Part shown: in pieces, positions 1-32,122 of the stretch | Layout of the letters: each line of letters opens with the position of its first letter | Numbering within the stretch: position 1 is the stretch's first letter | Translations under genes and position numbers: made by a program | The notes under the pieces: model-generated | The model's database searches: none | What the model was told of the DNA's origin: nothing | The model's input: only the letters and a program-made list of their open reading frames with translations | Origin: Candidatus Latescibacterota bacterium | Lineage (GTDB): Bacteria > Latescibacterota > UBA2968 > UBA8231 | Direction: 5' to 3' | Length of the DNA: 64,000 bases | Assembly (NCBI GenBank): GCA_965204725.1 | Contig: OZ242005.1 | Location: 2,848,001-2,912,000 of the forward strand

Positions 1-1075
1 CCAATTCCACGTCGTCCCACCGCCGGCGGCCGAGCTGGGTCAGGTATTCGTCGAGGGTCGATACTTCGAGGGTCCCGGTGGGGCCGATGGTGCGATAGAC
101 GTTCGGCTGCGGCGTGTTGCCCGTGCGGGTGCGGAGCAAAAGCTGGGTTCCCGCGGGCACCTCGCCTTGCCAGCGAACCTTGCTCCACGCAACCTCGCGG
201 CCAAAATCCAGAATCGGAGTGCGGTAAGTAGTCCGGGTCACAAAGCCCTCGCCATAGACTTCAAACTCGGCGATTTCCCAATCGCGCTCGGGGTCGAGCG
301 GGCGAATGGCAATCCACTTGAGGTCGCGGGTGGGGAAGCGCAAATCCACCACCACGTCGAGGCTTTCGCGGTTGCGCGCCAAGATGTCAAAGGCCGGGTC
401 ATTGGGTGCGCCCAAGGCCGCGTCGATAACCATGTACCAACGCTTGCCGCGCTGGCTGCGGTCGAAGTTGCTGTCCCAAAACGGCGCAGTGTGGTTGGCC
501 ACGCCGATTTCGTACCAAGCCAAGTGGTTGTCCTCAAACCGAGGCCGGGGGAAGAAGCGGATGCGGTTGATGGGCAGCTCAGCCCCCAAGTGCATGACGT
601 TGTTTTTGACCACGCCGGGGTTGTTGCGGCCGGCCAAGCGCGGCGGCTCGGGCACTCGCACCAGCATGGCGGTCGTCGGATCGCCGTCGATGAGAAACTG
701 CAAGGGCTGGGAGTCGGTTACTAAGTGCGTACCGCCGTAGATACTGGCCGTGTAAAAGTGCCCTTGGCGTTCCTTGATTGACAGGGCCAAGTTCTCGCTC
801 GGATCGATATACACCGGGCGCAGGCCGCCCGCGGCAAAGTCGATCAACGTATCGACGCCCGCGGTGTTGAAGCGCACGCTGACCTCTTCGGCTACCGCGC
901 CAATGGTCACCTCCTCGACGATGCGGCCCTCGGCGTCGAGCAGCGCGTACGAAGCCGTCTGCTCGGCGATCAGTGCCTGCCAAGAATTGCCGTCCGCGCC
1001 GCCGAGGCGGAACTCACCGCGACCCCAAGCCCCGGTAGTTAGGACCGCTATTAGTAAGCCTAGCCGCTGGAACAT
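1..1075 (-). CDS. Secreted protein of the FlgD-Ig/CHU_C-tailed paralog family (5' part; runs off window start)
   Basis: Not in ORF track; read manually. ATG at 1075 after RBS AAGGAGGAGA: MFQRLGLLIAVLTTGAWGRGEFRLGG...EIAEFEVYGEGFV...PILDFG...LRTRTGNTP. Same core motifs as 1089..3137 and 18231..20240; open to the window edge. Confidence 0.85.
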   Translation of the reverse strand, partial: MFQRLGLLIAVLTTGAWGRGEFRLGGADGNSWQALIAEQTASYALLDAEGRIVEEVTIGAVAEEVSVRFNTAGVDTLIDFAAGGLRPVYIDPSENLALSIKERQGHFYTASIYGGTHLVTDSQPLQFLIDGDPTTAMLVRVPEPPRLAGRNNPGVVKNNVMHLGAELPINRIRFFPRPRFEDNHLAWYEIGVANHTAPFWDSNFDRSQRGKRWYMVIDAALGAPNDPAFDILARNRESLDVVVDLRFPTRDLKWIAIRPLDPERDWEIAEFEVYGEGFVTRTTYRTPILDFGREVAWSKVRWQGEVPAGTQLLLRTRTGNTPQPNVYRTIGPTGTLEVSTLDEYLTQLGRRRWDDVEL

Positions 1076-1088
1076 GATGGTCTCCTCC

Positions 1089-3137
1089 TTAGTACGCTAC
1101 GCATACGGGCCGCACCGTCTGCCCGCTGCGCGCGTCTCCGGCCACTTCGAGCCGCACCAAGTAGATGCCGGGGGCGACGCGCTGGCCCCGCTCGTCGGTG
1201 CCGTCCCAATGTACGGCGTCGTACACCCCGTTTTGTCCTTCGGCGTCGAAGAGGCGGCGCACCCGCCGGCCGCCTACATCCCACAGCTCAATCGCGATCC
1301 GCGCTTTGCCGATGACCGCCAGCACCTCAAAGCGCACGTCGAGGATGTCGTTCACTCCGTCCCCATTGGGCGTCAAGACGTTGCTGCCGAGGGCGAACCG
1401 GCCAATCAAGCTGCCTTCGTTCACCGCACGGCTCAGCACCGTCGTCCCCGATTCGGTCGGCACATCCCCTTCCGCCAAAAAGGCCGCGTCGCCCGGGGTA
1501 ATGCCCTGAAAGGCATCCTCTGCTAGCAGCAGGGCGCGGCCGCCAAAGCGGGTGCTAAAGGCCAGCACTCGGCTGACGAAGTGGATTTTCAGCACGGCGT
1601 CGTGCTGGTTGATGGCCGGGAAACGCACCGCAAAGCGCTGGTCGTCAATGGCGGTGATAGCGACCTCGCCTTCGGCTGTGACCCCATCGGTCACGGCAAA
1701 GGCGTGGTCGAGTACCGGTTGGCCGCTGGCGTCGATGATTTCGATTCGCTCGACGCGGCTGACGCGACTCGGAGTAAACACCTCAAAGCTGTTGAAGCCC
1801 TGCGCGTGATCGCTTTCCATCACCGCCCGCACTGCGTATGCAAAGGGCACGTCGGCGGCGGCCGGCACCTCGCGCGGGAAAATCTCGCCGATGAGGGCGT
1901 CGGCCAGCGGTGGCGAGGAAAATTCGAGGCCGATCTGCTCGATGATGTGGCTGGCTTCCAAGTGCTGGCTCTGAAATTCCACGCGAAATTGGAAGTAGCG
2001 GCTCGGGCCGGGCGAGAGAATCTGTGTGCCCGCAGCCAGATCCTCCAGCGAGTAAGGCGAGGTCCACGGACTCCAGTTTGCCAAGTCGTCGCGCACCGAG
2101 CCGCGCTCCCAATCGTCGCCCTGACGCCCGCGCTCGGGCAGCTTTAAGTACTCTCGGCGCAGCAACGGCTCGCCCGGGTCGCTCGCGGACGACGGGATCT
2201 CGGGGGCGTCTTGCAGGCCCACCTGCTTGCGGGTGTATGCCAAGGGACTGGGGTCGTGGCCGCTCCGGGTGCGCAACTGCATGTCGGCTAGGTCCGCCGC
2301 GCCTACTTGCTGCTGCAAGGTGCGGATGAGGCCCCAGTTGGCCGGGCTGCCCATGTCGATGATCGGCGAGATGTAGCGCGCTGTCGGGAAAAACCCCTCG
2401 CCAAAGACTTGGAGTTTTTCGATCTCAAAGGGAATGGCCGACGTGGCTCGCAGGCGGATGAAGCGAATGTAGCGCGGCGGGTTGATGGGCACTTGGGTGA
2501 TCGGGTCGCTGTTGTTGTTGAGCACGGTATAGGTTTCCCATATAGGGTTGCCCGAGCTGGTCAGCACCAAGCCGTCGTTGATCTCCACTTCAAAGTTTTT
2601 CAAAAAGTCGTTCTGAAAGGGGGTGCCGGGCGAGGAAAAGACCGTGTTGCGAGGAAAAAAGCGCAGCCGGTTGACCCCAAAGCGCGCGCCGAGGTCGAGA
2701 ATGAGTTGGGTCCCCGAGATGTCGTCCTCTTTGCGCTCGAATGCCTGCCCGGTCGGCTCGGCCGCGAGCATGTCCTCGAAAATCACCTGTAGCTGCAAGG
2801 CGGTCAGGTCAAAGACGGTCGGTGCGCGCAGCGAGCCGCCGCGCTCCAGTGCCTCGGTGGCCAAGTTCTGCTCGGCCCCCACTCGCCGCGGCAGGATGCT
2901 GCCCGGAAAATCCGCGCTGTCGAACTCGATTAAGTCGGCCGGCGCATGGCCGATTTCGGTGACGTTAGGGTCGAGAAAGGAGCGGTGCTCGGGCCGAATA
3001 GTCGAGATGCCCTCGGCCCCTTCGACGCGCCCGGTCCACGAGATTTGCCCGTCCTGCCCGATGAGCAAGACTTGTCGAGCCGCCAGCGGTTGCACCCAGC
3101 ACACCGTTAGGACTCCAATCAGTAGCGCGGCTTTCAT
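1089..3137 (-). CDS. Secreted protein with C-terminal FlgD-Ig / gliding-motility (CHU_C-like) domain
   Basis: 682 aa, signal peptide; C-terminus LTPNGDGVND...WDGTDERGQRVAPGIYLVRL...VCVAY. Confidence 0.85.
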   Translation of the reverse strand: MKAALLIGVLTVCWVQPLAARQVLLIGQDGQISWTGRVEGAEGISTIRPEHRSFLDPNVTEIGHAPADLIEFDSADFPGSILPRRVGAEQNLATEALERGGSLRAPTVFDLTALQLQVIFEDMLAAEPTGQAFERKEDDISGTQLILDLGARFGVNRLRFFPRNTVFSSPGTPFQNDFLKNFEVEINDGLVLTSSGNPIWETYTVLNNNSDPITQVPINPPRYIRFIRLRATSAIPFEIEKLQVFGEGFFPTARYISPIIDMGSPANWGLIRTLQQQVGAADLADMQLRTRSGHDPSPLAYTRKQVGLQDAPEIPSSASDPGEPLLRREYLKLPERGRQGDDWERGSVRDDLANWSPWTSPYSLEDLAAGTQILSPGPSRYFQFRVEFQSQHLEASHIIEQIGLEFSSPPLADALIGEIFPREVPAAADVPFAYAVRAVMESDHAQGFNSFEVFTPSRVSRVERIEIIDASGQPVLDHAFAVTDGVTAEGEVAITAIDDQRFAVRFPAINQHDAVLKIHFVSRVLAFSTRFGGRALLLAEDAFQGITPGDAAFLAEGDVPTESGTTVLSRAVNEGSLIGRFALGSNVLTPNGDGVNDILDVRFEVLAVIGKARIAIELWDVGGRRVRRLFDAEGQNGVYDAVHWDGTDERGQRVAPGIYLVRLEVAGDARSGQTVRPVCVAY

Positions 3138-4180
3138 GGCATTTTCCCAGACAATTGTTTCAGCAAGACGTCCCGCTCGGTTTGGACGCGCGCGGCGATT
3201 GTGGCATGCTGCTTTTGGCGCTGGTACTGGGCAAACGCCGCCTGGGCGGCTCGTTCCTCACCTAGCAATCCGTGGAGCTTGCTGAGGAAGAAATGCACCC
3301 GGTAGTCATCCGGGGTGGCCTCGGCCAGCGCGGCAACGCGGGCGAGGGCCTCGCGGTAACGCCCCTGCCAGAACAGCAGCTTGCCCAGCCCCCACAAATC
3401 GGTGCTTGAATCGGGCCTTTCCGCGAGCGCGGCCGCGAGCTGCTCTTCCGCCTTTTGTATGGCTTCCTCCCCGACCAGCTTTTGCTGCCGCCACCAGCCC
3501 TCCACCCTTGCGCGGCCCAACTCGCCGCGGCGGCGGTCCATCTCAATGAGGAGATCCGCCAGCCCCAAGGCTGCTTGCCGCGCATAGTGCTTTTGTCCCA
3601 ACAGCTCGACGTAGGCCGCAATCGCTGGTTCGGCTTGGCCTTCGGCCTCGTACATGCGCGCTAGCTGATAACGAGCCCGGCTGCTGTCGGGACGCAGCAC
3701 TAGCAAGTCGCCGTAGGATTGGGCCGCGCTCTGCAAGTCGCCGCTCAGGCTCTGTGCGTCGCCCAACCGGCCGAGCAACGCGGCCGGGTCGCCACCTTGG
3801 TCGAGCAAGGTCCGGTAGAGGCTGACGGCAGCGGCTGGCTGCCCGGCATCTACATAGCGGGCCGCCAGCAACTCCTGCGCTCGACGCTCTTCGGGCCAGC
3901 GCGTCAACAATTCGCGGTACGCGGTAATGGCCTTGCCGGGTTCGTCCTTTTCGCCGTAGAGTGCTCCGAGCGCGTAATAGGCTGCGGGAAAATCAACCCC
4001 TGCGGCGACCGCACTCCTGAACTCGCGCAGGGCATTGGCCCGCATGCCCTGCTCTTGGTATGCGCGACCCGACCAGTAGTGCTGCTCTCCTTGCGACCTG
4101 CCATCGCAGGCGTTGAGACCAATACTGAGCGCGATTAGCCAGAGATACGCGACCCCACCAGCTATGGCTAGGGGGCGCAT
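3134..4180 (-). CDS. Tetratricopeptide repeat protein (possible lipoprotein)
   Basis: 348 aa; hydrophobic N-terminus with LNAC; TPR-like helical repeats (AYYALGALY, ARYQLARMY). Confidence 0.8.
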   Translation of the reverse strand: MRPLAIAGGVAYLWLIALSIGLNACDGRSQGEQHYWSGRAYQEQGMRANALREFRSAVAAGVDFPAAYYALGALYGEKDEPGKAITAYRELLTRWPEERRAQELLAARYVDAGQPAAAVSLYRTLLDQGGDPAALLGRLGDAQSLSGDLQSAAQSYGDLLVLRPDSSRARYQLARMYEAEGQAEPAIAAYVELLGQKHYARQAALGLADLLIEMDRRRGELGRARVEGWWRQQKLVGEEAIQKAEEQLAAALAERPDSSTDLWGLGKLLFWQGRYREALARVAALAEATPDDYRVHFFLSKLHGLLGEERAAQAAFAQYQRQKQHATIAARVQTERDVLLKQLSGKMP

Positions 4181-6843
4181 TAGTTCAGCCCCGCGTAAAT
4201 CGTCACAAAGGATTCGTTGGTCGTCCGCGCCTCCTGCCCGGTGAACTGCTTGCGCTCGATTTTCATGCCGGTCAGGGCGCGCAGCTTGTAGCCGAGGTAG
4301 TTGGACTCATTGCTAAACTGGACGGCTACGGTCACCGCGTTGAAGTCGTTGGCGTCGGTGTCGAAGTCGTTGAAAATCGCGTACTCCACGCCGGCCTGAA
4401 TTTTGGTCACCTGCAAGACCTGCGTCTCCACCAAACCTGAAAACAACTCCATCAGACTGGTGTGGCTGTCGAGCGAGAGGAGGCTGCGGCTCTGCTTGCG
4501 GAACTCGCTCTTCCAGCGCGGCTCCAAAGACCACGCCCCGAGCTGGAAGCGGTAGCTCGCTTTGTTGATCAGGCCGAAGAAGAAGTCGGAAGGGGCCAAG
4601 TCGTATTGCTGCCGCTGGGCCTTTTCCATCCGCTGGTGGAAGTAGAGCCAGTGCATCTTGGTCATTAAAAAGAGCGACGCCACCTGTAGGTTGTGGCCGA
4701 TAAAGAGCTGATTGACCCAAGTGTCGCGCGCCAACAGCGGGTCCTCGACCTTGGTCAACTCGCCGCCGCGTAGCGTATTGTCCGGCGCCCATTGCAACAG
4801 GGGGTTGGGAATGTCGTCGGCGACCAGCTTGCTCATCTCGAATACCCGGAAACGACCCAACCGCGGCGCATCGCGCTCGTACGTAAACATTAGGTAGGTG
4901 CTCTCGTTTTTGCGCGCCGAGGAAATCAGCCCCTCGCGCAACGCGCCCACCACCAAGCGCGCCCGCGGCGTGAGGTCGGCGCCGAGGTGGATGTTGAAGC
5001 CCCGGTGATCTCGGCGATACGGATAATCCGGCTCCTCGTCGTTTTCGTATTGATCGACCCAAAAGTTGTTGTTCATATCGACGCCAAAGAGAAACTCGGG
5101 CCGATCGACGTAAAACCGCAGAAACGCCTCCTCGTAGTCCGGCTCGGTATTCGAGCGGACGAACGTATCGTTTTGGTTGAAGTCGGGCACAAAGTCGTTG
5201 TTTTGATCCCAACCCGGAAAGACTTGCAAATCGCCGCTGAGAAAGTCGAAGCGCACGTTGTCCGGGAATTTGTCCTGATCGTCGTTGTCATCGACCAAAT
5301 CGACCAAGCCGCGCTCGTTGTCGTAGTCGAAGTCCCCGGTGCCCGAGGTGATAAAGGTCTGGGTGTTGTAGCGCGGGTCCATACTGTAAAACTCGCCGAA
5401 GGCAAAGTAGGGGGCGGCCTTTTTAGACACATTTACCATCCAAGCGGGGGCCGAGCGTCGGCCGCCGATCCCAGAGAATGCCTCGTGGGTCTCCTCGAGC
5501 ACGTTGGGGTACTTCCGATAGCTCCAGCTCAGATCGTACTCGCCGTATAGATCGAAGCCCCGCAGGTTTTGCAACTCGACGCTGCCGCCAAAGATGTGGG
5601 TCGCGGTGGGCAGGCCGTACTCAAAGCGGATGGTCTGCAAATTGGTGATGTCTTGGACGTTGCCCTCGGCTTGTGCGACGAGCAGCAAGACCTCTTGGCC
5701 GTCGAGGTTGATCTGGCGGTCCGAGGTCATCCAGACTTGGTAGTCGTTGCCCAGCGTCAGCAGGAATTCAACCTTGGCGATTTCGTCCTTGGCAAAGCGG
5801 GCCTGATCGACAAAGCTCGGGCTGTCGAAGTCGTACACGAGCCGCATCTCCTCCGGCCCGTTGGCTGCGACAAAGCCCTGCTGCAAGAAGCCGCCCTCGA
5901 CGATCGGCTCAAAGCCAATGGCCTTGCCCGATTCCTTTGAGCCGTCGCGATAGGTGATTTGCACGTCCGACGCATCGGGGAAAAAGGCCGCGCCGCCCAT
6001 GCCGTCTTCGGGCGAGTCGTCGCGCAGCACCAGCTTGATGAGCGAGATGGTCTTGTTTTGCCCGATGGTCAGCGAGCCGGCGAATGGGTTGCCGGCCTGC
6101 TTGTCGAGCAAGGTGTGCGACTGGTGGGCGTTGGCCGTGTGCAGCGCGACTTCGGCAAAGTCGCCGATCTGCGCCCCCAATCGCCCGCCCGCCAAGATGG
6201 TGTTGTTCGTCCGCAGGACCTCGCGGTCTCCGGTTGAGCCGCCGCCGGGGTTGCTCAGCCGCGAAAACAAAAAGGTGGCTTCGTAGCGGTCGGTGGCGAG
6301 GTCGAACTGCACGCCGTCCATGCGGGCCTTGGCAAACACCATCGGCGACAGCACCGAGCGCAGGCGGCTGCTCGCCGTCAAGGTGTAGAAGTATTGGCCC
6401 TTGTTGTCTTGCGCCACCACGACTTCGGAAAACCAACTCTGGAAGCGAGAGGACTTGAACAGCACGTTGCCGAACTGCTGGGGCTTGCTCTGCGAGTTGT
6501 TGAAAATCAGCCAACCGCGCGTGAGGAAATTGCCGTATAGATCGTAGAAGTAATCGCCCTCTAAGGTCGTTTCTACGTAGCGCTCGTAAGGGTTGCGCGC
6601 ATAGTTGGTGTATTCCCACTGCCGCCATTGGTACTCGCTGTACAGCTCTTGCGGCACGTACCAGCGCCGCACGGCCGGGTCGAGCGCGTTCAGAGCCACC
6701 CCGGGGCCTTGGGGCGCGAGACGGGTCTGGTCGCCGAGCTGCAAGCCCAAGCGCGTTCCGTACTGGTCTTGCGCCGCGCCCGGCGCACCGAGGGCACTCC
6801 ACAAAACTAGGAGACCGCAATACAGTTCGGTCTTTGGTCTCAC
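4180..6843 (-). CDS. Large exported protein of unknown function, putative outer-membrane protein with Asp/Asn-rich Ca-binding-like loops
   Basis: GTG at 6843 after RBS AAGGAGG (track ORF extends to 6966); signal peptide; VDDNDDQD, DQNNDFVPDFNQND, DMNNN motifs; amphipathic beta-like C-terminus; paralog of 25147..27780. Confidence 0.8.
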   Translation of the reverse strand: MRPKTELYCGLLVLWSALGAPGAAQDQYGTRLGLQLGDQTRLAPQGPGVALNALDPAVRRWYVPQELYSEYQWRQWEYTNYARNPYERYVETTLEGDYFYDLYGNFLTRGWLIFNNSQSKPQQFGNVLFKSSRFQSWFSEVVVAQDNKGQYFYTLTASSRLRSVLSPMVFAKARMDGVQFDLATDRYEATFLFSRLSNPGGGSTGDREVLRTNNTILAGGRLGAQIGDFAEVALHTANAHQSHTLLDKQAGNPFAGSLTIGQNKTISLIKLVLRDDSPEDGMGGAAFFPDASDVQITYRDGSKESGKAIGFEPIVEGGFLQQGFVAANGPEEMRLVYDFDSPSFVDQARFAKDEIAKVEFLLTLGNDYQVWMTSDRQINLDGQEVLLLVAQAEGNVQDITNLQTIRFEYGLPTATHIFGGSVELQNLRGFDLYGEYDLSWSYRKYPNVLEETHEAFSGIGGRRSAPAWMVNVSKKAAPYFAFGEFYSMDPRYNTQTFITSGTGDFDYDNERGLVDLVDDNDDQDKFPDNVRFDFLSGDLQVFPGWDQNNDFVPDFNQNDTFVRSNTEPDYEEAFLRFYVDRPEFLFGVDMNNNFWVDQYENDEEPDYPYRRDHRGFNIHLGADLTPRARLVVGALREGLISSARKNESTYLMFTYERDAPRLGRFRVFEMSKLVADDIPNPLLQWAPDNTLRGGELTKVEDPLLARDTWVNQLFIGHNLQVASLFLMTKMHWLYFHQRMEKAQRQQYDLAPSDFFFGLINKASYRFQLGAWSLEPRWKSEFRKQSRSLLSLDSHTSLMELFSGLVETQVLQVTKIQAGVEYAIFNDFDTDANDFNAVTVAVQFSNESNYLGYKLRALTGMKIERKQFTGQEARTTNESFVTIYAGLN

Positions 6844-6895
6844 AACAACCTCCTTTAGTGCCCGTAGGATTGCAGAGGACTGCCCACGAAGCACT

Positions 6896-9800: not shown

Positions 9801-9955
9801 CGCGCCAGATGGGTGGGAATGGACCACTGCTGCCAGTGGCTGGCCCGCTCGACTACGACTTCGTCGCCGACGATCTGATAGCCCGACTGGGCTTCGGCCC
9901 ATGCCCAACTTAGCATTAGGCCGACGAGGATCTGCACGACCGAGAGGCTCTTCAT
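6896..9955 (-). CDS. Large secreted protein, discoidin/F5-8-like N-terminal region and C-terminal FlgD-Ig/CHU_C-like domain
   Basis: ATG 9955 (MKSLSVV) after GAAGGAG; DGDPTTFW...WWIEVDLGR discoidin-like motif; C-terminus FTPNGDGINE...WDGQDEAGQVVPPGLY...IAVAY. Confidence 0.85.
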   Translation of the reverse strand: MKSLSVVQILVGLMLSWAWAEAQSGYQIVGDEVVVERASHWQQWSIPTHLARIHDDGSVRAHALRTVFNVLDDPGFKRPIVISKPDPRIGTIDSTMQFDVFGEPIRNTLSQLVFDYWVRPGISRVGSNPHLAANILDGDPTTFWEPDPRDPIEQWWIEVDLGRVVPVERLKLQFVDESLGDPFLRFILLLSDRQSALLHEPNNRIGFQLFIPQDAPNTTQREYIFESEHTSPELPPATGVVSDKQLAEGLRRSPTWTGRKIETIRIVVTDTRGGRAEPISQEAWEALPEAERGDIVYFARDVAGREEPVDEATYQAMEAQRQGRRDYYRRELPRLAEVEAHGWGDNLSINLIENGGSYGLTTDGTNTLLLFDGDASTGFSHQIRNPKNPTANVLTIDIGGVVRLAQIRLVGSGERGYIMRASTGERDAQGNLKWRRISPEERERNVFAGHFLDIADIQDPPVLTRFLDMITIGHVPPGFRATGPGGTGHMNQFWSFHHELMLFAEGPPAEVVLESDLIELPGLVALGEVLWEASTPPGTDVEIRTRTGDQLLQQIRYFDKTGNEKTAAEYKTLAGFLKGPSDTTVVVGPGWSPWSQRYLQPGDLATSPSLRRFMQIQARLKSSSQNAPALHRIGVAFHQPVAQHLRAEVWPTAAAAGVLDTFALYVQPNFLQQPAAVRSPGFNQLVLHAEPPFALRFVDAALGTEAEVSTETPLEWDGEVRVRAEGDSLWLEFPQTVQGAPAEVLTPVYYRSVHPGDEVPTGLDRNLLTFTSHSLLPEAEQGAVRYFRRLVTGRLAEVEAAAYDALSADEQGPVRYFRKVLGLGDQVPFDAAGDSLDQQSYGRLGGQRGWVVGRGRLLRVRFAGRVYLQGTRMQVAVRQSQPATPWQGADGGDATALSPSQGLSIGAQGARATIDDIAIAPNPFTPNGDGINETAEIGFSLFRVQAMRPLTIHLYTLAGRRVRQLTGLATGGPQQFRWDGQDEAGQVVPPGLYLCQIAVEADAEGAGGTTRTRLIAVAY

Positions 9956-10052
9956 GGTTTGGCGATCTCCTTCGCGCTGCATGAGTGGATGCAAAAACTA
10001 TTAGGTAGGGGGAAAACCTAGGGCTGTCAAGATGGCTGTGACCGGCTAGCCG

Positions 10053-16296: not shown

Positions 16297-16484
16297 TTGC
16301 CAATTCCTTGCCAAATTTTCGGATTCTGACGGCCGTTCAAGTATGTCTCTTGGCTGGCTCCGTGTCCACCTAGGCCCCAAGTCGCAGTACTATTGTAATA
16401 TGTAGGGGGCAGTTGTATATTTGGCCCCGACCCATCAGCTTGCAAAGGTTGCAAGTTCGCTCAGACCACTGAAAGGAGAGCAGC

Positions 16485-17508: not shown

Positions 17509-18228
17509 ATGCGCGGATGCCTAGCGATCGCGGTGCTCATCTTCCTCGCAAGCGGCTGCGGGCGCTATTTCCCCCAGCCACTGCGCCCCGCTCCTCAACA
17601 AGCAGAGGGCATGACCATCAACGACGATGGCTCGGTCACCTACGCGCTAGAGCGGCTGGCCATTACCCTCAAGCCCATGACCGACGCCGAACTCAACCGG
17701 CAATTTCCCCAAGCCTCAACCGGCGGGGCCGCGGCCGTCAACCCCTATACCTTTGGCGATTGGGCCGCGCCCGGCGACACTTGGACGCCGCCGCGCTTTT
17801 TGGTGATGAAACTCGGCGTCGCCAACTACCAGTTCCCCAAGGTCGTCATCGATCCCCTCAAGGCCACGATCAAAGCGGCCAACAATCAAACCTACCGCGC
17901 CTTGAGCTACGCCGAGCTGTACGAATACTATCGATCGTATTGGCAGGCCAACTCCGGCCAAGGGCGGCTCGAATTCAGGGCGCGCACCGATATTCTCAAG
18001 CAAACCATGTTTACGGATGACTTCATCTTCAGTGGCCGCGACGAAGAAGGGTACATCGTCTTTCCCCGCTTGGACGACGAAATAAAGCGCGTCCAAGTGG
18101 AAATCGCCGACATCGCCATTCGCTTCAACTTTGAGAACGAACCCGTGGAAACCGTGGACCTCAACGTCTCTTTCGAGCGCGAGGTGCTCAAGGGGCACGC
18201 ACCCCATAGCGCGGTTCCATTGCAATAA
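17509..18228 (+). CDS. Lipoprotein of unknown function
   Basis: ATG 17509 MRGCLAIAVLIFLASGC (lipobox); first gene of a tightly packed run to 24739. Confidence 0.75.
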   Translation: MRGCLAIAVLIFLASGCGRYFPQPLRPAPQQAEGMTINDDGSVTYALERLAITLKPMTDAELNRQFPQASTGGAAAVNPYTFGDWAAPGDTWTPPRFLVMKLGVANYQFPKVVIDPLKATIKAANNQTYRALSYAELYEYYRSYWQANSGQGRLEFRARTDILKQTMFTDDFIFSGRDEEGYIVFPRLDDEIKRVQVEIADIAIRFNFENEPVETVDLNVSFEREVLKGHAPHSAVPLQ

Positions 18229-25146: not shown

Positions 25147-27780
25147 GTGAGACGTCTAACGATACGATTGCTTTATTGCGGTTTGCTCCTCGCCACGCCG
25201 CTGCCATCCGCGGCTTGGCGCGCCACCGGATTTGACAACCCCTATTACACTTCAGCCACCGAAGTCGCGCCCTCAACCCTCGTTCCTTCGGTCCGCAAGT
25301 GGTATCAGCCGCAGCGCCTGTACGAACTCTACGACTGGCGGCAAGACCAGTACTCCAACTACGCGCGCAACCCCTACCAACGCTACAACGACGTCTTCTT
25401 GGAGGGGTCGCCCTTTTACGACATTTACGGCTCGTATATCAGCCAAGGTTGGCAGGTGTACAACTGGACTGAAAACTATCCCACGGCCAGTGGCAGCAGC
25501 ATCTTCAAAAGCCCGCGCTTTAGCTCGTGGTTCAGCAACGTCCTCATCTCCTCCAGCCACTCTGGGCAGTTCCACTCCTCCCTGATGGTGGGCGACGGCA
25601 TCCGCACAACCCTGACGCCGCTCACCTTTTCCAAGCCGCGCTTCGACGGCGTGCAGTGGGACATGATGTCGGACAAATACGCCCTGACCCTGCTGACCTC
25701 GCGCATCAACAACGCGGGCGTCGTCGCGGGCGTCGCGGGCGAAACGGGTGTGCGGTTCAGCACGTTCACCAACTTGTGGGCTGCGAAAGGCCAAGTCAGC
25801 ATCGGCGACTTTTCCGATATTGGCCTAACATTTGTCAATGCGGCCCATCTGAATTCCAACATTCCCTTTGGCGACAATTCGCTCAAAGGCCAACTCAGCG
25901 GACCGATGAACAACGACTTCGTGCGCTCGATCATCGTGCGGATTTCCGACGACTCGCCCGAAGACGGCGAAGGCGGTGCCCTGCTGTCGCGCTGGCGCGT
26001 TTTCGCCAATGGCGTGGAGCACACCGACGACATCGCGCCCGTGGTTGAAGGAGGCTTTCGCCGCCGCGGCGTGATTGAAGCGAGCGGCACCGATGTAATA
26101 ACCCTCACGTTCAACATCGAAGACTTCGCGCCCACCATCGACGACAAAATCGACGACTTCCGCGAGATTAAGCACGTGGAGATCGGCCTAGTACTGGCCA
26201 ACGACTACAAAGTAGAGGTCGCTTCCAACAAACAGACCAACCAACTCGGCACCCCGGTGTTCCTGACCGTGCTGCGCGCCCCGGGCAACGTCAAAGACGG
26301 CGCCAACCAAGCCTTTCACACCTTTCGCTACGGCCTGCCTACGGGCAACCGGCTGCTCGGCTTTGACCTGTCGATCAACGACGTTGCCGGTTTTGACCTA
26401 AAGGGAGAATACGTGCGGAACTTCCAGTACCGCCGCTTCCCCAACGAAAACTTCATCCGCGATCAAGCCCTAGCTACCAACACGGCCGAAGCCTTTTACC
26501 TAACAGCGCAGAAGCGGCATTATCCATGGACGATCTTTGCCGAAGCCTTTAGCATGGACGCTGAGTACTCGACCCAAGCCTTTATCCCGAACTCCGAGGG
26601 CGAGGTGTACTACGGCAACGAACAGCAAAGCGCGTACGAGTTCGTCGATGACAACGACGATCAAGACGAATTGCCCGACTGGACCCGGCGCTACCACGGC
26701 CCGCGCGTCAACACCCGCCAAGGGGTGGGGCTGTTGACCGACAGCGCGGTCTTTCCCGGAATCGACGAAAACAACGACGATCTCTCGGATTTCAACCGCA
26801 ACTTCAACCGCTTACCCGACTACGCCGAGCCTTTTCTGCGCTTTGAGGTGGATCCCCCCGATTTTCTCTTTGGCATGGACATGAACAACAACGGGGTCAT
26901 CGACCGCTTTGAAGACGACGCCGAAGCAGACTATCCCTACAAACGCGGGCACCGGGGATACAACACTTATCTAGGCGTTGAAATCGCGCCGGATGTAAAC
27001 CTCATGGTCGGTCGGCTCGACGAGCGCCTGCTGAAAACCGCCCGCGAAAACGCGACTACGTACCTGCTCTTGACTGCAAGCGAAAAGTTCCCGCGCTACA
27101 ACCTGCAAGTACGGCTGATTGTCAATCCGCGCAAGGTTGCAGACGACATTCGCGACGACGTCTTTTTGTGGGTCGATACGCCCGGCACATTCGGGGAAGC
27201 GCGCTTTATGCGCGACCCGCTCGGGGCGCGCGATGCGTTTGTCAATACGACATATTTAGACGTGCGCTACGACCGCTATATCTCGTTTACCACCAAGGTC
27301 AAGTACGATCAATACACCCAATTAGGGTCGGTTGCTGAAGAGTTGAACAACCAGCGCTTTCTCGGGGTGATCAACAAGGCCCAGTACCCGTTCCACCTGC
27401 GATCTTGGGATTTGACCCTGAACTGGAAACAGCTATACAGCAATCGAGTGCCGGCCGACAAGGACGCGCTGCAAACGTCTGACCTAACGGAGATTTTCTC
27501 GCTGCTGGCCGGCCGCGAGATCAACCGCAACATGAGCTTTACGGCCGGCGTTGAATACGAGATCGCCAACAATCTGGGCGAGCAGCCCGAGGGGTTGCTA
27601 GAAGACGGCACTACGCTGGTGCTGGCCGGCCAAATAGCCAACCAATCGGCCTATCAGGGGTATGCGCTGACGACCAACGTCGGGCTGCGCTGGACCCGCG
27701 AAGACCTCGACTCCGCTCCTTCGTCGGCCAAGCTGTTTACCTTTATCAGCGTCTTCGCCGGGCTGGGCAAGGACCTGTAA
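25147..27780 (+). CDS. Large exported protein of unknown function, paralog of 4180..6843
   Basis: RBS GGAGG, GTG start, signal peptide; PSVRKWYQPQ, NYARNPY, DDSPEDG, YGLPT, VDDNDDQD, FLFGMDMNNN, INKA.Y and FAGL motifs shared with the paralog. Confidence 0.8.
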   Translation: MRRLTIRLLYCGLLLATPLPSAAWRATGFDNPYYTSATEVAPSTLVPSVRKWYQPQRLYELYDWRQDQYSNYARNPYQRYNDVFLEGSPFYDIYGSYISQGWQVYNWTENYPTASGSSIFKSPRFSSWFSNVLISSSHSGQFHSSLMVGDGIRTTLTPLTFSKPRFDGVQWDMMSDKYALTLLTSRINNAGVVAGVAGETGVRFSTFTNLWAAKGQVSIGDFSDIGLTFVNAAHLNSNIPFGDNSLKGQLSGPMNNDFVRSIIVRISDDSPEDGEGGALLSRWRVFANGVEHTDDIAPVVEGGFRRRGVIEASGTDVITLTFNIEDFAPTIDDKIDDFREIKHVEIGLVLANDYKVEVASNKQTNQLGTPVFLTVLRAPGNVKDGANQAFHTFRYGLPTGNRLLGFDLSINDVAGFDLKGEYVRNFQYRRFPNENFIRDQALATNTAEAFYLTAQKRHYPWTIFAEAFSMDAEYSTQAFIPNSEGEVYYGNEQQSAYEFVDDNDDQDELPDWTRRYHGPRVNTRQGVGLLTDSAVFPGIDENNDDLSDFNRNFNRLPDYAEPFLRFEVDPPDFLFGMDMNNNGVIDRFEDDAEADYPYKRGHRGYNTYLGVEIAPDVNLMVGRLDERLLKTARENATTYLLLTASEKFPRYNLQVRLIVNPRKVADDIRDDVFLWVDTPGTFGEARFMRDPLGARDAFVNTTYLDVRYDRYISFTTKVKYDQYTQLGSVAEELNNQRFLGVINKAQYPFHLRSWDLTLNWKQLYSNRVPADKDALQTSDLTEIFSLLAGREINRNMSFTAGVEYEIANNLGEQPEGLLEDGTTLVLAGQIANQSAYQGYALTTNVGLRWTREDLDSAPSSAKLFTFISVFAGLGKDL

Positions 27781-27892: not shown

Positions 27893-29248
27893 TCAAGGCC
27901 GGGGCGTTGCGGCCGGAAAAGCAACTTCGGCGAGTGCTGCGGTATTTATTTCAATATCCGCGCTGTACTGCTCGCGGAGCCGCGCAATGAAGGCGTCCAT
28001 GGCCGCGGTTGCCGCCCGCTGCCTCAGCAGGGTTCCGATGCTGTTATAGACCAAGGATAGATCGGTCACTTTGCCGTCACTGCGAGTAAACAGCTCGATG
28101 TTGGCGTCGTAGTACGCGCGAATGTCCTCTTCAGTGATGGCCTGCTGGCTCACCCCCTTTTGGCCCTCGGCGCGATAGAGCCAATCGACGATGAGCGCGT
28201 CGCGCTTGCGCTCCACCTGCTCGCGCACCTCGCGGTCGCGGTCGTATTGCAGCTTGCGGCCCTCGGCCATCATAATCTGCACCCCGGCCAAGTTCTCGGC
28301 CGTCTTGTGGCGAGCGGCGCTGTCGAGCCGGCTGCGGCTCGTCGCTAGGGCGGCCCAGTACGCGGCCGTGGTCAGTTGGCCGCCGCGCCAACTAAAGAGC
28401 ACTCGCTCCTCGCCCTCGGGATCGGGCGCGGCCAAGGCTTTTAGGCCCTCGGGGTGGGCTGCTAGCTGGTATTCGCGGCGCAGGCGATGGACGTATTGTT
28501 CCATGTCGTCGGCCCGCTTTTGCACCCGCGCTTTTTCTGTTAGCCATGCGCGCTGGGCCGCAAAATCCAAGTGCCGCCGGTCGTCGAGCCGGAAGACGTG
28601 AAAGCCCATTTGGGTCTTCACCGGCTGCGGATAGAGTTGCCCCGCGGCCATGGTCCGCAACGGTTCCTTCAGCTCGGGCAGCATGTTGCCCATCTTGAAC
28701 CACCCCAACCGGCCGGCCGGGCCAAAGCGCCGCTGGATGGTCGCGGTCGAATAGATGGGCACCAGCGACTCAAACGGAGTGCCCTCTTGCAGGGCCGCCA
28801 GCACCTCTTGGGCCTCTTCCTCGGTCGCGCAGACAATGTGCCGGCTCAAGACCTCGACATCGTATTCGCGCTCTTGGGCAAAAGCCCGCAATTCGTCCTC
28901 GGTTGATGTGTAATCGCCGCGCAGGGCCTCTTCCTCGTACAGCTTGTTCACCACGGCCTTTTGCTCGGTGCGCTCGACTTCGCGGGCAATGCTCGGCTCG
29001 CGGTCGAGGCCGCGACGCAGCCCTTCGCGCACCAACAGCTCGCGGGCGATCACGCCGTTGAGCAGCTCCAGCTTGGCGTCCGCATTCATTTCCTCGAGGT
29101 GCTTGTAGCCCGTTTGCATCAGTTTTTGCGCTCGCTCCCGAAAGTCTTCCGGCGATAGGGTCGTTTCGCCAATGCGGGCGACATACCTAGGCTCAGGTTC
29201 GGCGCCAGAAGCTACGAGTGCGAGCAAGGCGATTGTTCTCAGTTTCAT
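27893..29248 (-). CDS. PpiC/SurA-like peptidyl-prolyl cis-trans isomerase
   Basis: 451 aa; signal peptide; VARIGE; SRHIVC..EEEA; GRLGWF; PVKTQMGFHVFRL (parvulin). Confidence 0.85.
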   Translation of the reverse strand: MKLRTIALLALVASGAEPEPRYVARIGETTLSPEDFRERAQKLMQTGYKHLEEMNADAKLELLNGVIARELLVREGLRRGLDREPSIAREVERTEQKAVVNKLYEEEALRGDYTSTEDELRAFAQEREYDVEVLSRHIVCATEEEAQEVLAALQEGTPFESLVPIYSTATIQRRFGPAGRLGWFKMGNMLPELKEPLRTMAAGQLYPQPVKTQMGFHVFRLDDRRHLDFAAQRAWLTEKARVQKRADDMEQYVHRLRREYQLAAHPEGLKALAAPDPEGEERVLFSWRGGQLTTAAYWAALATSRSRLDSAARHKTAENLAGVQIMMAEGRKLQYDRDREVREQVERKRDALIVDWLYRAEGQKGVSQQAITEEDIRAYYDANIELFTRSDGKVTDLSLVYNSIGTLLRQRAATAAMDAFIARLREQYSADIEINTAALAEVAFPAATPRP

Positions 29249-29264: not shown

Positions 29265-30917
29265 TTATTTGGCAGTCCGGCCCGAGGTTCTATGCTCTAC
29301 TTCTTCAACGACAATGTGCTGATTGGCCGCGACGTTTAAGAGGGTCTGTACCGCGCCGCTAGGCCAAAAAATTTGCAGTGAATCTACGTGGGCATGGCGG
29401 CCCAAGCCGAGGGTTAGGCGCACGTCGCTGCTGCCCATGTACCCGTAGCTGCGGCGAATTTCGCGCTTTTGCACGAGATCTCCCGCCACGGCGCGGATTT
29501 TGGCCCCGAGTCCGTCGCGGTTGCTGTGGGTGCCTACGGCTTCGACCGTCAGGTAATTATGACCGCTGTGGTCGTTGCGCAACAAGGTGCAGTGGGGCGC
29601 GTCCGAATCCGAGACGAAGATGTCAACGTCGCCGTCGTTGTCGTAATCGCCCAAAGCGGCACCGTGGCTGACGCGCTCGACGAGCATGCCCGGACCGCTG
29701 TCGTTGCTCACGTCGGCAAAGGTGCCATCGCCCTGATTGCGGAACAGTTGGTTTTGCTGCGGATAGGTCGTGTCCGGGTCAAATTCGCGCACGTTTTCAT
29801 CGAGATGGCCGTTGGTGACCAAGATGTCGAGGAAGCCATCGTTGTCGCTGTCAAAAAAGATCGCGGCCATGCCCAAGTAGGGCACACTCGGCGCGCCGAG
29901 CTGGGCGGCAAACGTCAGGTCGCTGAAAAAGCCGCCACCGTCGTTGTGGTAGAGCGTATTGGGCAGCCATTGGAAGGTGGCGAGGATGATGTCGAGCCGG
30001 CCGTCGTTGTCGTAGTCGCCAAAGTCCGCGCCCATAGCGGACTCAGCGCGCCCTTCCTCGTTGTACGCCACCCCGGCGATGATACCATGCTCGGCAAAGG
30101 TGCCGTCGCCGTTGTTGAGGAAGAGAAAATTGGGCTGCCGGTCGTTGGCGATAAATAGGTCCGGGTCGCCATCGTCGTCGCAGTCGCCAAACACCGCAGC
30201 GAGTTGACGGCCCTCGTCGTTGGACAAGCCCGCTGCGTGCGTCGCATTGACAAACGCGAGGTCGCGGTCGTTGCGATAGAGCACTCCAGACTGGCCGGGG
30301 TATGCGAGGGGGCCGCATATAGAGCGCGCCGCGCCCGTAAAGCACTCCTTGTTCGCGTCCAAATCGAACGCCATGTAATTGGCGACGTAGAGGTCTAAGT
30401 CGCCATCGCGGTCGTAATCGGCAAAGGCCGCATGAGTGCCCCAACCCGGGTCGCCGAGGCCGGCCCGGGCCGTCACATCGGCAAAGGCTCGACCTTGGCC
30501 CGCGTTGTGATAGAGGACGTTAGGCCCGTAGTTGGTCACGTACAAATCGGGGTTGCCGTCGTTATCTACGTCGCCGACCGCCGCGCCCATGCCGTACCCC
30601 GCATCGCCAGTGCGCACCGCCTCGGTGACATCTGCGAAGGTGCCGTCGCCCTCGTTGCGGTAGTGGGCATTGGTGCCGGGCGGGCCGTCATAACCCGGCA
30701 GAGCCGTGCCGTTGACGATGTACAGGTCGAGGAAGCCATCGCCGTCGGCATCGAAGAACGCCGCGCCCGAGCCGATGGCCTCGGGCAGGTACTTGCGGCC
30801 ACTCGCGCCGTTTACATAGCGGAAGTCAAGGCCAGCGGCGAGGGTCACCTCGACGAAGTGCGGGACGGACTGGGCATGGACGCTGGCGGCTGCCAATGCG
30901 AGAAGTAGCAGGAGCAC
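29265..30917 (-). CDS. CRTAC1 family protein (FG-GAP/VCBS repeats plus ASPIC/UnbV)
   Basis: Multiple DxDxDGxxDL repeats; C-terminal SNRDGLGA...GLG...IFWPSG. Confidence 0.9.
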   Translation of the reverse strand: MLLLLLALAAASVHAQSVPHFVEVTLAAGLDFRYVNGASGRKYLPEAIGSGAAFFDADGDGFLDLYIVNGTALPGYDGPPGTNAHYRNEGDGTFADVTEAVRTGDAGYGMGAAVGDVDNDGNPDLYVTNYGPNVLYHNAGQGRAFADVTARAGLGDPGWGTHAAFADYDRDGDLDLYVANYMAFDLDANKECFTGAARSICGPLAYPGQSGVLYRNDRDLAFVNATHAAGLSNDEGRQLAAVFGDCDDDGDPDLFIANDRQPNFLFLNNGDGTFAEHGIIAGVAYNEEGRAESAMGADFGDYDNDGRLDIILATFQWLPNTLYHNDGGGFFSDLTFAAQLGAPSVPYLGMAAIFFDSDNDGFLDILVTNGHLDENVREFDPDTTYPQQNQLFRNQGDGTFADVSNDSGPGMLVERVSHGAALGDYDNDGDVDIFVSDSDAPHCTLLRNDHSGHNYLTVEAVGTHSNRDGLGAKIRAVAGDLVQKREIRRSYGYMGSSDVRLTLGLGRHAHVDSLQIFWPSGAVQTLLNVAANQHIVVEEVEHRTSGRTAK

Positions 30918-30919
30918 GG

Positions 30920-32122
30920 TTAATCCCGCTTTTGGCTCGCGCCGCCGAACTTGCGGGCGAGGGCCGCGCCGCGCTGTAAGCGGGCATTGTCCGGCTCAAA
31001 GCGCAAGCCCCGCTGATAGCTTGCCAACGCTTGGACAAATTCTTTTTGCATCATCAGGGCATTGCCGAGCGCGAGATGCGCGAGGATATAGGTGGAGTCG
31101 GCGCGCAGGGCCGTGCGGAACAGGGACATGGCCTCGGGCACTTGGCCGCGGCGCAAATATAGATTGCCCAAGTTGTGGTACGAGGGCGCGAAATTGGGGT
31201 CGCGGTCGATGGCCTGTAAATAGTACAGACGTGCTTCTTCGTACTGCCCGCGCTGGCCGTATAGCGCGCCTATCTTGTGGTATAGCTCGGCCTTGTCGGG
31301 CGTGCGGAACAGGGTAGTACGCAGGCCGACGAGGAGCTTTTCCTGCTTTTCCAGTTCGTTGTACAGGGCCAACTGGCGGCGGCCCTCCTCCTGCTGGCCC
31401 CGGCGCAACAGGGCATTGCCGAGGGTAAAGCGGGCCGGCGCAAAGAGCGAGTCAAGGGCCACGGTGCGCTGTAATTCGACGATGGCCGCGTCGTACTCGC
31501 GGCGCTTGTACAAGGACGCGCCGAGGCCATAGCGGTACTTGGCCACGGTCGAATCGGCGGCTAGCGCACGGGTATAGGCCGCTTCGGCCGCGGCGTAGTC
31601 GTTGAGCTTGAGATGGGCCTCGCCGAGGTTGTACCATGCTTCGCCGTAGTCGTCTTGTAGGGCGACGGCGCGGCCATGCGCGGCAATGGCTTGCTCGTAC
31701 TGGGCTTGGCGGAAGTACAGCAGCCCGAGTGCCATCTGGGCCCAAGCGTAATCTGGGGTCGAGCGCGTGACCTCCTCTAACAGGGCGAGGGCCTCGGCGT
31801 GGCGATTGAGGCGGGTCAGCACAATGGCTAGTTCGGTCTGCGCTTTGGCGTAATCGGGTTGCAGCGCAATGGCCTGTCGATAGGCTGCGAGGGCTTGGGT
31901 CAACTTGCCGTCGCGGGTGTATGCGTCGGCCAGATTGCGATGGGCTACCGCAGAGTTCGGAGCGCGTTCTACGGCGCGTTTTGCGGCTGCTATGGCCGCG
32001 GAGTATGGACCTTGCAGGCGGCTTGCGAGCGTTGCATCGGTTGGGCGCGGTTGGGAGTCGCTGGGGGGTTCCTCCTGACAGGCGACTAAGGTTAGGATCG
32101 ACAGGTAGCAGAGTAGGGACAT
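30920..32122 (-). CDS. TPR lipoprotein
   Basis: LVAC lipobox; about 9 TPR repeats (AHRNLADAY, AWYNLGEAH, SYHNLGNLY). Confidence 0.88.
   Translation of the reverse strand: MSLLCYLSILTLVACQEEPPSDSQPRPTDATLASRLQGPYSAAIAAAKRAVERAPNSAVAHRNLADAYTRDGKLTQALAAYRQAIALQPDYAKAQTELAIVLTRLNRHAEALALLEEVTRSTPDYAWAQMALGLLYFRQAQYEQAIAAHGRAVALQDDYGEAWYNLGEAHLKLNDYAAAEAAYTRALAADSTVAKYRYGLGASLYKRREYDAAIVELQRTVALDSLFAPARFTLGNALLRRGQQEEGRRQLALYNELEKQEKLLVGLRTTLFRTPDKAELYHKIGALYGQRGQYEEARLYYLQAIDRDPNFAPSYHNLGNLYLRRGQVPEAMSLFRTALRADSTYILAHLALGNALMMQKEFVQALASYQRGLRFEPDNARLQRGAALARKFGGASQKRD

Follow-up and report, generated by a model that had tools for sequence, protein, structure and literature searches.

Which role is played by two neighbouring gene modules of large secreted proteins in the genome of a Candidatus Latescibacterota bacterium (GCA_965204725.1, here G000), and do they form a secretion system of their own? 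The modules lie in a window, i.e. the whole stretch of DNA that was analysed, of 64,000 nt (contig OZ242005.1, positions 2,848,001-2,912,000, forward strand). The two modules were annotated over window positions 1-32,122, and coordinates given as G000:C1 are contig positions. Each module contains members of two families. The first, termed cargo (c1-c6 in the window), consists of tailed CBM32/Ig-like proteins, and the second, termed B (B1 and B2 in the window), consists of proteins of ~880 amino acids (aa). A first-pass annotation made from the window alone had proposed an undescribed secretion or surface-display system. The reading favoured here, with a probability of about 45%, is that each module is a cell-surface lectin complex serviced by a type IX secretion system (T9SS), held on and probably feeding the B barrel.

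Linkage of B, cargo and tail

The 5.43 Mb assembly encodes 39 B and 104 cargo paralogs, as found by BLASTP and profile searches, and 102 of the 104 cargo paralogs are matched by the first tail model. The B and cargo genes account for 6.2% of the genome, rising to 7.5% when three further recurrent families are added. They are distributed over 27 loci with both B and cargo, 19 loci with cargo only (27 genes) and a single locus with B only. The commonest make-up is one B gene with three cargo genes (12 loci).

The association extends beyond this genome. A pattern scan of 185,579 species genomes returned at least 600 relatives of B, of which the best 80 were examined. Nearly all of these are labelled Latescibacterota, with some Gemmatimonadota and one 3-kb contig in an archaeal bin. 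As the 80 are those closest to B2, they represent mostly one module type. Full 10-kb flanks are available for 47 of these loci, and all 47 contain at least three cargo-core genes with tails (exactly three in 42). The same flanks carry a CBM9-like gene in 41 loci, a lipoprotein gene in 44 and a peptidyl-prolyl isomerase (PPIase) gene in 36.

The phylum was surveyed through an even sample of 81 Latescibacterota genomes, with thresholds of E<=1e-12 for the tail, E<=1e-15 for the cargo core and E<=1e-10 for SprA. Kin genomes are not independent, so the counts are to be read as clades and not as 81 separate trials. B is matched in 46 genomes, the cargo core in 33, the type-B-like tail in 44 and SprA, nearly universal in the phylum, in 76. 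The tail accompanies B in 43 genomes; three contain B alone, one the tail alone and 34 neither of them. Each of the 33 genomes in which the cargo core is matched also has B and SprA. SprA is likewise present in every one of 30 genomes (mostly >95% complete) from two families that belong to the class of G000, but these have no B, cargo or tail. The predicted co-occurrence of the ~880-aa family with tailed proteins is thus borne out within G000, at the 47 full-flank loci and in the 81-genome sample.

Could the neighbours lack any functional link, the cargo being ordinary T9SS substrates and B an unrelated porin co-amplified by tandem duplication? Whole-module duplication alone keeps neighbours together within one genome, and 27 cargo genes stand without B. 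However, the linkage persists across families in which B matches at E 1e-42 to 1e-112 and the cargo lies beyond the core model, and the distributions of tail class and B agree in 77 of the 81 genomes. This explanation is therefore regarded as highly improbable. Congruent B and cargo trees would not show binding, as whole modules duplicate as units.

Gene content of the two modules

All 17 open reading frames (ORFs) named or implied by the first-pass annotation exist at their coordinates. The genes of the modules are listed here by window position and strand.

2..1075, minus: cargo c1, N-terminal 358 aa; the gene runs past the window start
1089..3137, minus: cargo c2, 682 aa, secreted, beta-rich core and type-B-like T9SS C-terminal domain (CTD) ending in VAY (PF13585, 27.7 bits)
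3134..4180, minus: TPR protein, 348 aa, recurrent TPR/FG-GAP family (F4)
4180..6966, minus: B1, predicted giant outer-membrane beta-barrel family, 928-aa ORF, 37% identical to B2
6896..9994, minus: cargo c3, 1032 aa, long member, discoidin/CBM32 and type-B-like CTD (PF00754, 39.8 bits; PF13585, 24.5 bits)
10053..11813, minus: SurA/PrsA/PpiD-like parvulin PPIase lipoprotein, 586 aa, family F3 (Rotamase_2, 85 bits; SurA_N_3)
11963..13699, plus: periplasmic solute-binding protein SBP_bac_5, 578 aa (PF00496, 166 bits)
14338..16380, minus: DUF6785/DUF6784 inner-membrane permease, 680 aa, family F6 (PF20581, 399 bits)
16485..17420, plus: secreted protein that looks CBM9-like, 311 aa, family F5, C-terminal tag TSIEESTWAQIK (25 paralogs in 23 of 27 loci)
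17509..18228, plus: lipoprotein, about 239 aa, family F7, lipobox LASGC (nine paralogs in nine loci)
18231..20240, plus: cargo c4, 669 aa, predicted CBM32/discoidin domain, then Ig-like sandwiches, then CTD (AlphaFold2 (AF2) model; PF00754, 36.5 bits)
20171..22255, plus: cargo c5, 694-aa ORF, assigned by paralogy and tail alignment; the start at 20237 given in the first-pass annotation is equally possible
22268..24739, plus: cargo c6, 823 aa, long member, best type-B CTD scores (PF13585, 34.1 bits; TIGR04131, 34.4 bits)
25147..27780, plus: B2, 877 aa, signal peptide and predicted giant beta-barrel (AF2 model, fold searches)
27893..29248, minus: second parvulin PPIase, 451 aa, family F3
29265..30917, minus: FG-GAP/ASPIC-UnbV protein, 550 aa, family F4 (FG-GAP_3, 167.7 bits; UnbV_ASPIC, 67 bits)
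30920..32122, minus: TPR protein, 400 aa, family F4

The make-up described earlier is correct in that each module has three cargo genes (one long, two short), a single B gene, a parvulin-type PPIase and TPR proteins, and the Pfam assignments of the PPIase, TPR and FG-GAP/ASPIC proteins are firm. Two conserved genes had been missed, namely those at 16485-17420 and about 17509-18228. The two-module layout also holds, with the correction that the left module extends upstream of the window, where it contains a second B gene (895 aa, G000:C1:2843563-2846250). The full c1 ORF encodes 679 aa (G000:C1:2847036-2849075) and possesses the type-B-like tail. The true start of B1 is probably later than the ORF start, at the signal peptide, and the longest ORF of the F7 lipoprotein begins at 17329. 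The SBP_bac_5 gene sits between both modules and is not among their recurrent members.

In one metatranscriptome run (X20), contigs from a roughly 90%-identical relative span the whole right module (window 16446-31636). One contig over the CBM9-like gene, the lipoprotein gene and c4 has a depth of 177.7, and depths of 7-15 are seen for the contigs that cover c5-c6, B2, the PPIase and the TPR gene. This is a weak hint that the module genes are real, given that DNA carry-over is possible and contig depth cannot rank genes.

The tail as a distinct class of C-terminal domain

The tails occupy the extreme C-terminus of all their proteins in the tail alignment. TPNGDG.N[DE], PG[IL]Y and a terminal VAY or IVY are present in all five complete copies, as had been read from the window, and also in full-length c1; the further element W[DS]G[RQT] is present in all five window copies and was not found in c1. 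Of the 4514 genes that belong to neither the B nor the cargo family, one contains TPNGDG.N[DE] and four have a terminal [VI][AV]Y. In the PF13585 CHU_C model (cut-off 27), c2 and c6 score above the cut-off, c3 and c4 (24.6 bits) score below it, and c5 has no match. In TIGR04131 (cut-off 35), c6 lies just under the cut-off and c3 reaches 16.4 bits.

The predicted fold points in the same direction. Residues 563-669 of the c4 model were compared with about 48,000 chains, and P. gingivalis PorU provides the best match with its CTD (6za2_B; Z 12.9, root-mean-square deviation 2.7 Å over 100 residues, 21% identity); the PorZ CTD (5m11, Z 10.1) comes next. The first-pass view of the tail as a T9SS-type CTD is therefore upheld by family scores at or near the cut-off and by the closest predicted fold.

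Searching the genome with an iterated tail profile yields 184 proteins with a C-terminal CTD, of which 100 are of the cargo family and 84 are type-A-like. Cargo-family tails carry [PA]NGDG in 80 of 100 cases and end in VAY or VVY. The type-A-like tails are of the form NPFN...LLK/LIR/KLP, and PorU itself is among them. PNGDG is found in only one of the 84 type-A-like CTD proteins, and that one adjoins a B gene. The two classes also differ in position: a B gene is present within 10 kb for 65 of the 84 type-B-like tails (median distance 3.4 kb), compared with 9 of the 82 type-A-like tails (median 56.6 kb). On the basis of this linkage and of the split in motif and ending, the tail is a T9SS signal of a separate class. 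The TPNGDG...VAY class is tied to B neighbourhoods and is found almost only beside B genes.

Type-A-like CTDs are also carried by tandem arrays of about 720-aa paralogs (G000:C1:2164624-2193734, 998128-1004735 and 4877896-4900426). These have array-specific endings (…KTTKLP, …KMVKIE) and constitute a second, separate expansion of T9SS cargo.

The T9SS core elsewhere in the genome

A search of the full genome for sprA, porV and porU, as the first-pass annotation had recommended, found all three. SprA is a 2162-aa ORF (G000:C1:3033398-3039886) scoring 611 bits against a cut-off of 200. PorU (623 bits, cut-off 420) is adjacent to PorV (PorV_fam, 239 bits, cut-off 90), and this operon is followed by an M6-like T9SS-dependent protein, the three genes spanning G000:C1:343384-351028. 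Six PorV-family genes in all exceed the cut-off. With this canonical core encoded elsewhere, the modules are not an independent secretion system, and the proposal of an undescribed one is not sustained. The first-pass annotation had also named the alternative that the tails are ordinary cargo of a canonical T9SS encoded elsewhere. Half of it is correct: the translocon is elsewhere, but the tails are a distinct class tied to B.

Other components are less evident. GldL, GldM and GldN were not found with TIGR03513, TIGR03517, PF12081 and TIGR03523, models that matched in no control genome and may not reach this phylum. The GldK model matches FGE-sulfatase-like parts only, and no gldKLMN operon was found beside the GldK-like matches, SprA or PorUV. 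The GldLMN motor is either too diverged for detection or replaced. For PorP/SprF, the best score in the genome with TIGR03519 is 44 bits against a cut-off of 90.55, and in the window no TIGR03519 or PF11751-type match lies beside the cargo genes. As no gene reaches the PorP/SprF cut-off, some other protein must handle about 100 type-B-like tails.

The 44-bit protein is a 317-aa PorV/PorP-like barrel in a region (G000:C1:243315-254918) that also encodes a lone cargo gene (884 aa), a CBM9-like tagged gene and a 1081-aa ORF. An ExbB/ExbD-like pair adjoins this barrel (C1:243-250 kb). Lying near a T9SS-type barrel, such a pair may serve as an energiser of the Ton/Mot type, although it is not claimed as the motor.

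The B protein

B1 and B2 have no match in Pfam even at E<=10 and none in NCBIfam, and a B profile has no match at E<=1 among PDB sequences. The superfamily is nevertheless large: a library of 1.84 billion proteins, searched at E<=0.001, yields 1002 representative clusters. Those homologs that carry any source name are all called ‘hypothetical protein’. An Atlas search with B returned otherwise unnamed Latescibacterota and Gemmatimonadota clusters. The nearest Pfam-bearing Atlas cluster, DUF6029, lies at 0.89, below the trusted level, and was rejected.

The structure of B2 was predicted by AF2 with 28 relatives (pLDDT 71.7, pTM 0.72). The model contains about 26-28 membrane-length strands that form a beta-barrel, and a confidently predicted beta domain (about residues 240-395) is inserted after about the seventh strand. 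An Asp/Asn-rich loop (about residues 500-600) is disordered in the model and invariant across the B alignment, and may bind calcium. The N-terminal stretch is conserved and aromatic, with low model confidence. In Foldseek and VIA searches the matches of the model are all large barrels, namely SlpA, porins, MtrB, LptD, FimD, SprA and SusC. As every match has a TM below 0.3, the assignment stops at ‘giant outer-membrane barrel’. B is accordingly described as a predicted giant outer-membrane beta-barrel without family assignment.

The top match is SlpA of Deinococcus radiodurans (7zgx_A; Foldseek E 1.7e-8, VIA Z 13.9 over 422 residues), the 30-strand barrel of the S-layer deinoxanthin-binding complex. 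SlpA shares its very large size with B, but the TM is about 0.19 and the identity 10-11%. The SlpA family model PF21620 SlpA_C (cut-off 35) matches five of 14 distant B relatives over one stretch at 16.8-30.2 bits, all below the cut-off, and has no match in the window B proteins at E<=10. Unlike SlpA, B has no SLH domain or coiled coil, and its gene context is unrelated. B is at best a remote cousin of the SlpA barrels.

Several named families were considered and rejected. B has no Pfam (E<=10) or NCBIfam similarity to PorP/SprF or PorV/PorQ, and its hhalign probability against the genome's own PorV/PorP-like alignment is 2.9%; for all the parallel with PorP/SprF partners drawn in the first-pass annotation, B is not a homolog of that family. 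As a TonB-dependent transporter of the SusC type, B lacks any Plug match, none of the 20 Plug matches of the genome is a B protein, and the SusC fold match (Z 10.1) falls within the generic range. As a fimbrial usher, it has no usher family match, the chaperone genes of the modules encode parvulin PPIases, and FimD (Z 11.6) is tied with porins.

The resemblance to chaperone-usher pili (FimD/PapC with PapD-like chaperones) raises the further possibility that B is an usher-like translocon and the PPIase its chaperone, giving the tailed proteins a secretion route independent of SprA, which is the first-pass proposal in its strongest form. The fold searches return FimD and PapC (Foldseek E values from 5.5e-7 upwards), the inserted beta domain sits where ushers carry their plug, and several paralogous beta-sandwich ‘subunit’ genes occur per operon. 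A periplasmic chaperone gene is found in 24 of 27 loci, GldLMN is undetected, and one genome, G015, has B-like genes and tailed cargo with no SprA match. However, usher scores are no better than those of porins, LptD or MtrB. There is no usher or PapD-like family match, the PPIase being a parvulin, and the subunits here are of 650-1030 aa with T9SS CTDs. The tail has the predicted fold of CTDs recognised by the T9SS, PorU itself carries a related CTD, and SprA is present in 42 of 46 B-positive genomes, three of the four exceptions being only 64-80% complete. An usher-like route is very unlikely.

The cargo proteins

The six cargo proteins are true paralogs, as stated in the first-pass annotation, with homology well past chance in BLASTP (c2 and c4, 30% identity over 585 aa, E 1e-58; c4 and c5, 30.5% over 704 aa, E 5e-49). 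The core motifs reported for them are present but loose. Among 100 long paralogs, E.YGEGF-like sequences occur in 21, [RQ]TR[ST]G in 40, WxxW[ST] in 21 and the SP.PR type in eight.

One long discoidin-type member had been assigned to each module. In PF00754 F5_F8_type_C (cut-off 28.2) this holds for c3, but c6 falls below at 23.1 bits, and the short c4 passes; c1, c2 and c5 have no match in the Pfam scan of the window proteins. The AF2 model of c4 (22 aligned relatives, pLDDT 78.4) shows a CBM32/discoidin head, several Ig-like sandwiches and the CTD. The head (residues 65-233) matches CBM32 structures at Z 11-12.3, e.g. 4a42_B and 2v72_A. Membership in CBM32/F5_F8_type_C is supported by hidden Markov model (c3, c4) and by the predicted jelly-roll fold (c4). 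Pfam and NCBIfam scans of the cargo found no catalytic domain. The cargo proteins are thus predicted to be sugar-binding surface lectins with Ig-like stalks.

Lectin and Ig-like domains without a catalytic domain would also suit an adhesive or protective coat, for attachment to a sponge host or matrix or in the manner of an S-layer, with B as a membrane anchor and no import. Adhesins, pilins and S-layer proteins are among the fold matches, SlpA, which B resembles, is an S-layer anchor, and the window stretch is present in sequencing runs labelled sponge metagenome. According to PMC12618676, the type B cargoes of Flavobacterium are adhesins. On the other hand, the module family occurs in many other families of the phylum, some records carry groundwater- or sediment-style isolate names, and the family is therefore not specific to sponges. 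No SLH or OmpA-type wall-binding domain is found in B by Pfam, and 39 divergent copies with transporter neighbours look more like substrate-specific capture systems. A coat is considered unlikely.

Recurrent accessory genes and the SWGxIK tag

Five further families recur in the 27 B and cargo loci of the genome. The PPIase (F3) is represented by 25 genes in 24 loci, the TPR/FG-GAP family (F4) by 50 genes in 23 loci and the CBM9-like protein (F5) by 25 genes in 23 loci. The DUF6785 permease (F6; 12 genes, 11 loci) and the lipoprotein (F7; nine genes, nine loci) are less frequent. The window copies of F5 and F7 have no match in Pfam at E<=10, which for F5 includes PF06452 (CBM9). An F5 paralog elsewhere in the genome (L154:12380-13336) scores 38.6 bits with PF06452 against a cut-off of 23.4, and 25 of the 30 nearest named Atlas clusters to F5 carry this domain, which serves as a lead only. 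On sequence grounds, F5 looks CBM9-like.

The C-terminus of F5 (window 17381-17420) carries the sequence (T)SVE..[ST]W[GA]x[IVL]K followed by 2-10 residues, here termed the SWGxIK tag. Tags of this type occur 48 times in the G000 proteome, 46 of them in the last 22 residues of the protein (about 2.2 expected). Twenty-two are on CBM9-like proteins of the modules and 24 on further secreted proteins of small size (150-380 aa). The tag looks like an undescribed sorting or docking signal.

Accessory genes near the modules (66 of the 127 picked around them were scanned) include sugar ABC and SSF transporters, GFO/IDH/MocA oxidoreductases, aldo-keto reductases and enolase-superfamily members. In the window, a second TPR and FG-GAP/ASPIC-UnbV pair (38749-41705), paralogous to that at 29265-32122, is flanked by GFO/IDH/MocA oxidoreductase genes (34691-35731, 42307-43395 and 43441-44442). 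Further along, positions 45438-63749 contain an RND efflux set (an HlyD-type adaptor and two AcrB-family pumps), two fused ABC exporters flanked by DUF1854 proteins, a Yip1-domain protein and another HlyD-type adaptor. Elsewhere, a 1528-aa protein with Peptidase_M28 and FtsX domains (L123:1-4587, G000:C1:906836-911422) adjoins the module at 884-906 kb.

Distant-type modules with a small barrel

A second layout is found in five genomes of two distant families. In these, all seven full-length type-B tails are encoded directly upstream of B-like genes on the same strand. The order is a discoidin cargo gene, a small barrel, one to three B-like genes of about 1000 aa and a BamD/YfiO-like TPR protein. 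The cargo scores 26.8-37.5 bits in CHU_C (35.3, 26.8, 37.5). The small barrel has weak matches to both PorV/PorQ (37-76 bits) and PorP (19-27 bits). This layout firmly ties the modules to T9SS-type partners.

G000 itself contains one module of this type (L154, G000:C1:97001-112000; the module at C1:97-110 kb). It encodes, in order, a CBM9-like tagged protein, a B-like protein of 1028 aa, two small ORFs, a 552-aa cargo ending in VAY, a 286-aa PorV-like barrel (C1:102.3-103.2 kb, 42.8 bits), a B-like protein of 1036 aa and a TPR protein. The TPR protein has BamD/YbgF/PorW-like matches, with 82 bits in the PorW/SprE model.

The small barrel suggests a different division of labour, in which B would be a substrate channel only, i.e. 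a TonB-independent SusC-like or SlpA-like porin, and the lectins would be held by small PorV/PorQ/PorP-like barrels acting in trans. Apart from the small barrel beside the cargo in the distant modules and in one module of G000, this is consistent with the six PorV-family genes above cut-off, the pore-forming SlpA as nearest fold of B, the sub-threshold PF21620 matches of distant relatives and the permeases near the modules. Against it, the typical modules have no small barrel (at least 23 loci in G000 and all 47 full-flank loci elsewhere), and only two of the 13 PorV-family matches in the genome are near a cargo or B gene. A channel alone would not require the restriction of type-B-like tails to B neighbourhoods. 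This division is rather unlikely.

A proposed mechanism

In the favoured reading, the lectin complex serviced by the T9SS and held on B, assembly would begin with the passage of three cargo proteins, each with a CBM32-type head, an Ig-like stalk and a type-B-like CTD, across the inner membrane by Sec. They would then cross the outer membrane through the SprA encoded elsewhere. Unlike the ~80 ordinary type-A-like cargoes, they would not be handed to PorV/PorU; instead, the CTD would be captured and held by B. In the modules of this family, B would therefore occupy the place of the cognate PorP/SprF-like barrel of Bacteroidota. In that phylum, according to PMC12618676, each type B CTD has a cognate PorP/SprF-like shuttle next to it, and the tail class tied to B parallels this rule. 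For the modules themselves, gene content, predicted folds, linkage and co-occurrence are observed, and from these the binding of the CTD to B, the channel function and the roles of the PPIase and TPR proteins are inferred.

B would probably also act as the channel to the periplasm for captured sugars or oligomers, which the neighbouring permeases and binding proteins would take up. Uptake of sugar through B is suggested by its size, the multiplicity of divergent copies reminiscent of polysaccharide utilization loci (PULs), the lectin-only cargo and the permease and sugar-catabolic neighbours. The SurA/PrsA-like PPIase and the TPR (BamD/PorW-like) proteins would help to assemble the barrel and the cargo, and may amount to a dedicated set of assembly factors for very large beta-rich proteins. 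A further subunit of the complex would be the CBM9-like protein that bears the SWGxIK tag.

A number of observations weigh against this mechanism. B shows no PorV/PorP similarity, and with GldLMN undetected the T9SS of the genome may be incomplete. In the distant modules the small barrel is the more obvious holder of the CTD; as it coexists with B, B need not be the holder and may never touch the CTD. Within G000, 27 of 104 cargo genes, in 19 loci, have no B gene within 6 kb. In the phylum sample, 13 genomes have distant B-like genes only, with no cargo core, and the G015 genome, which lacks a SprA match, is 96% complete and its cargo is type-B-tailed. Lastly, no classic glycoside hydrolase was found among the 66 accessory genes scanned.

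Comparison with known systems

The closest functional parallel is offered by the type B CTD/shuttle pairs of the Bacteroidota T9SS, such as SprB/SprF, Fjoh_3952/3951/3950 and PG1035/PorP/PorE. Both have a CTD with a TPNGDGxND-type start and CHU_C/TIGR04131 scores at or near the cut-off. The cargo is non-enzymatic and adhesin- or lectin-like, and is encoded beside a dedicated outer-membrane barrel, often with a TPR protein, in a genome with canonical SprA, PorU and PorV. A small PorV/PorP-like barrel beside the cargo is shared in the distant members. In contrast, the partner in every module is a predicted barrel of ~880-1030 aa with about 26-28 strands and no PorP/PorV similarity. There are three cargo genes per barrel here, and the modules add a parvulin chaperone, a CBM9-like tagged protein and a lipoprotein. 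One genome encodes 39 barrel and 104 cargo copies, whereas F. johnsoniae has 12 type B substrates. The phylum is also a different one, Latescibacterota, and GldLMN was not detected.

The modules resemble SusC/SusD PULs (with SusE/F-type binding proteins) in the presence of many divergent paralogous loci per genome. Each locus combines a large outer-membrane barrel with several surface carbohydrate-binding proteins (predicted here), with transporters, sugar-catabolic genes and FG-GAP/ASPIC proteins nearby. They differ in that B has no Plug or TonB-dependent signature, the 20 Plug-domain receptors of the genome being separate genes. The binding proteins are T9SS cargo rather than lipoproteins, SusD is absent, and the accessory genes scanned include no glycoside hydrolases. 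In the way it works the module is similar to a type B CTD/shuttle pair, and in appearance to a PUL, but it belongs to neither. A more specific version is possible if doubtful: B, three CBM32 lectins and the CBM9-like protein with its tag would together make up a capture-and-import machine independent of TonB, a counterpart of SusC/D with the giant barrel in the PorP/SprF role.

No description of this system was found in work on Latescibacterota with PUL, CBM32 or discoidin. The first-pass remark that the lineage has no characterised system stands, as no published work was found that joins Latescibacterota and T9SS or type IX secretion. The available portion of a 2015 genomic study of the phylum predicts import only through ‘non-specific porins’.

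Significance

Nearly all work on the T9SS and on its type B cargo-shuttle pairs concerns Bacteroidota, and the same logic appears here in an uncultured sister phylum. The partner differs, as it is a much larger outer-membrane protein without family assignment. Were B to hold the CTDs, the shuttle/anchor role of the T9SS would not be bound to the PorV/PorP fold. The 39 paralogous barrel-cargo sets provide a natural set for studies of specificity.

A sponge-associated bacterium devotes about 6% of its genome to some 30 copies of the module. If B imports the material captured by the lectins, this would be a second, independent solution to the problem solved by SusC/D, and a handle on the diet of sponge- and sediment-dwelling bacteria. 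The capture-and-import reading, if true, would explain the uptake of complex glycans by this uncultured phylum.

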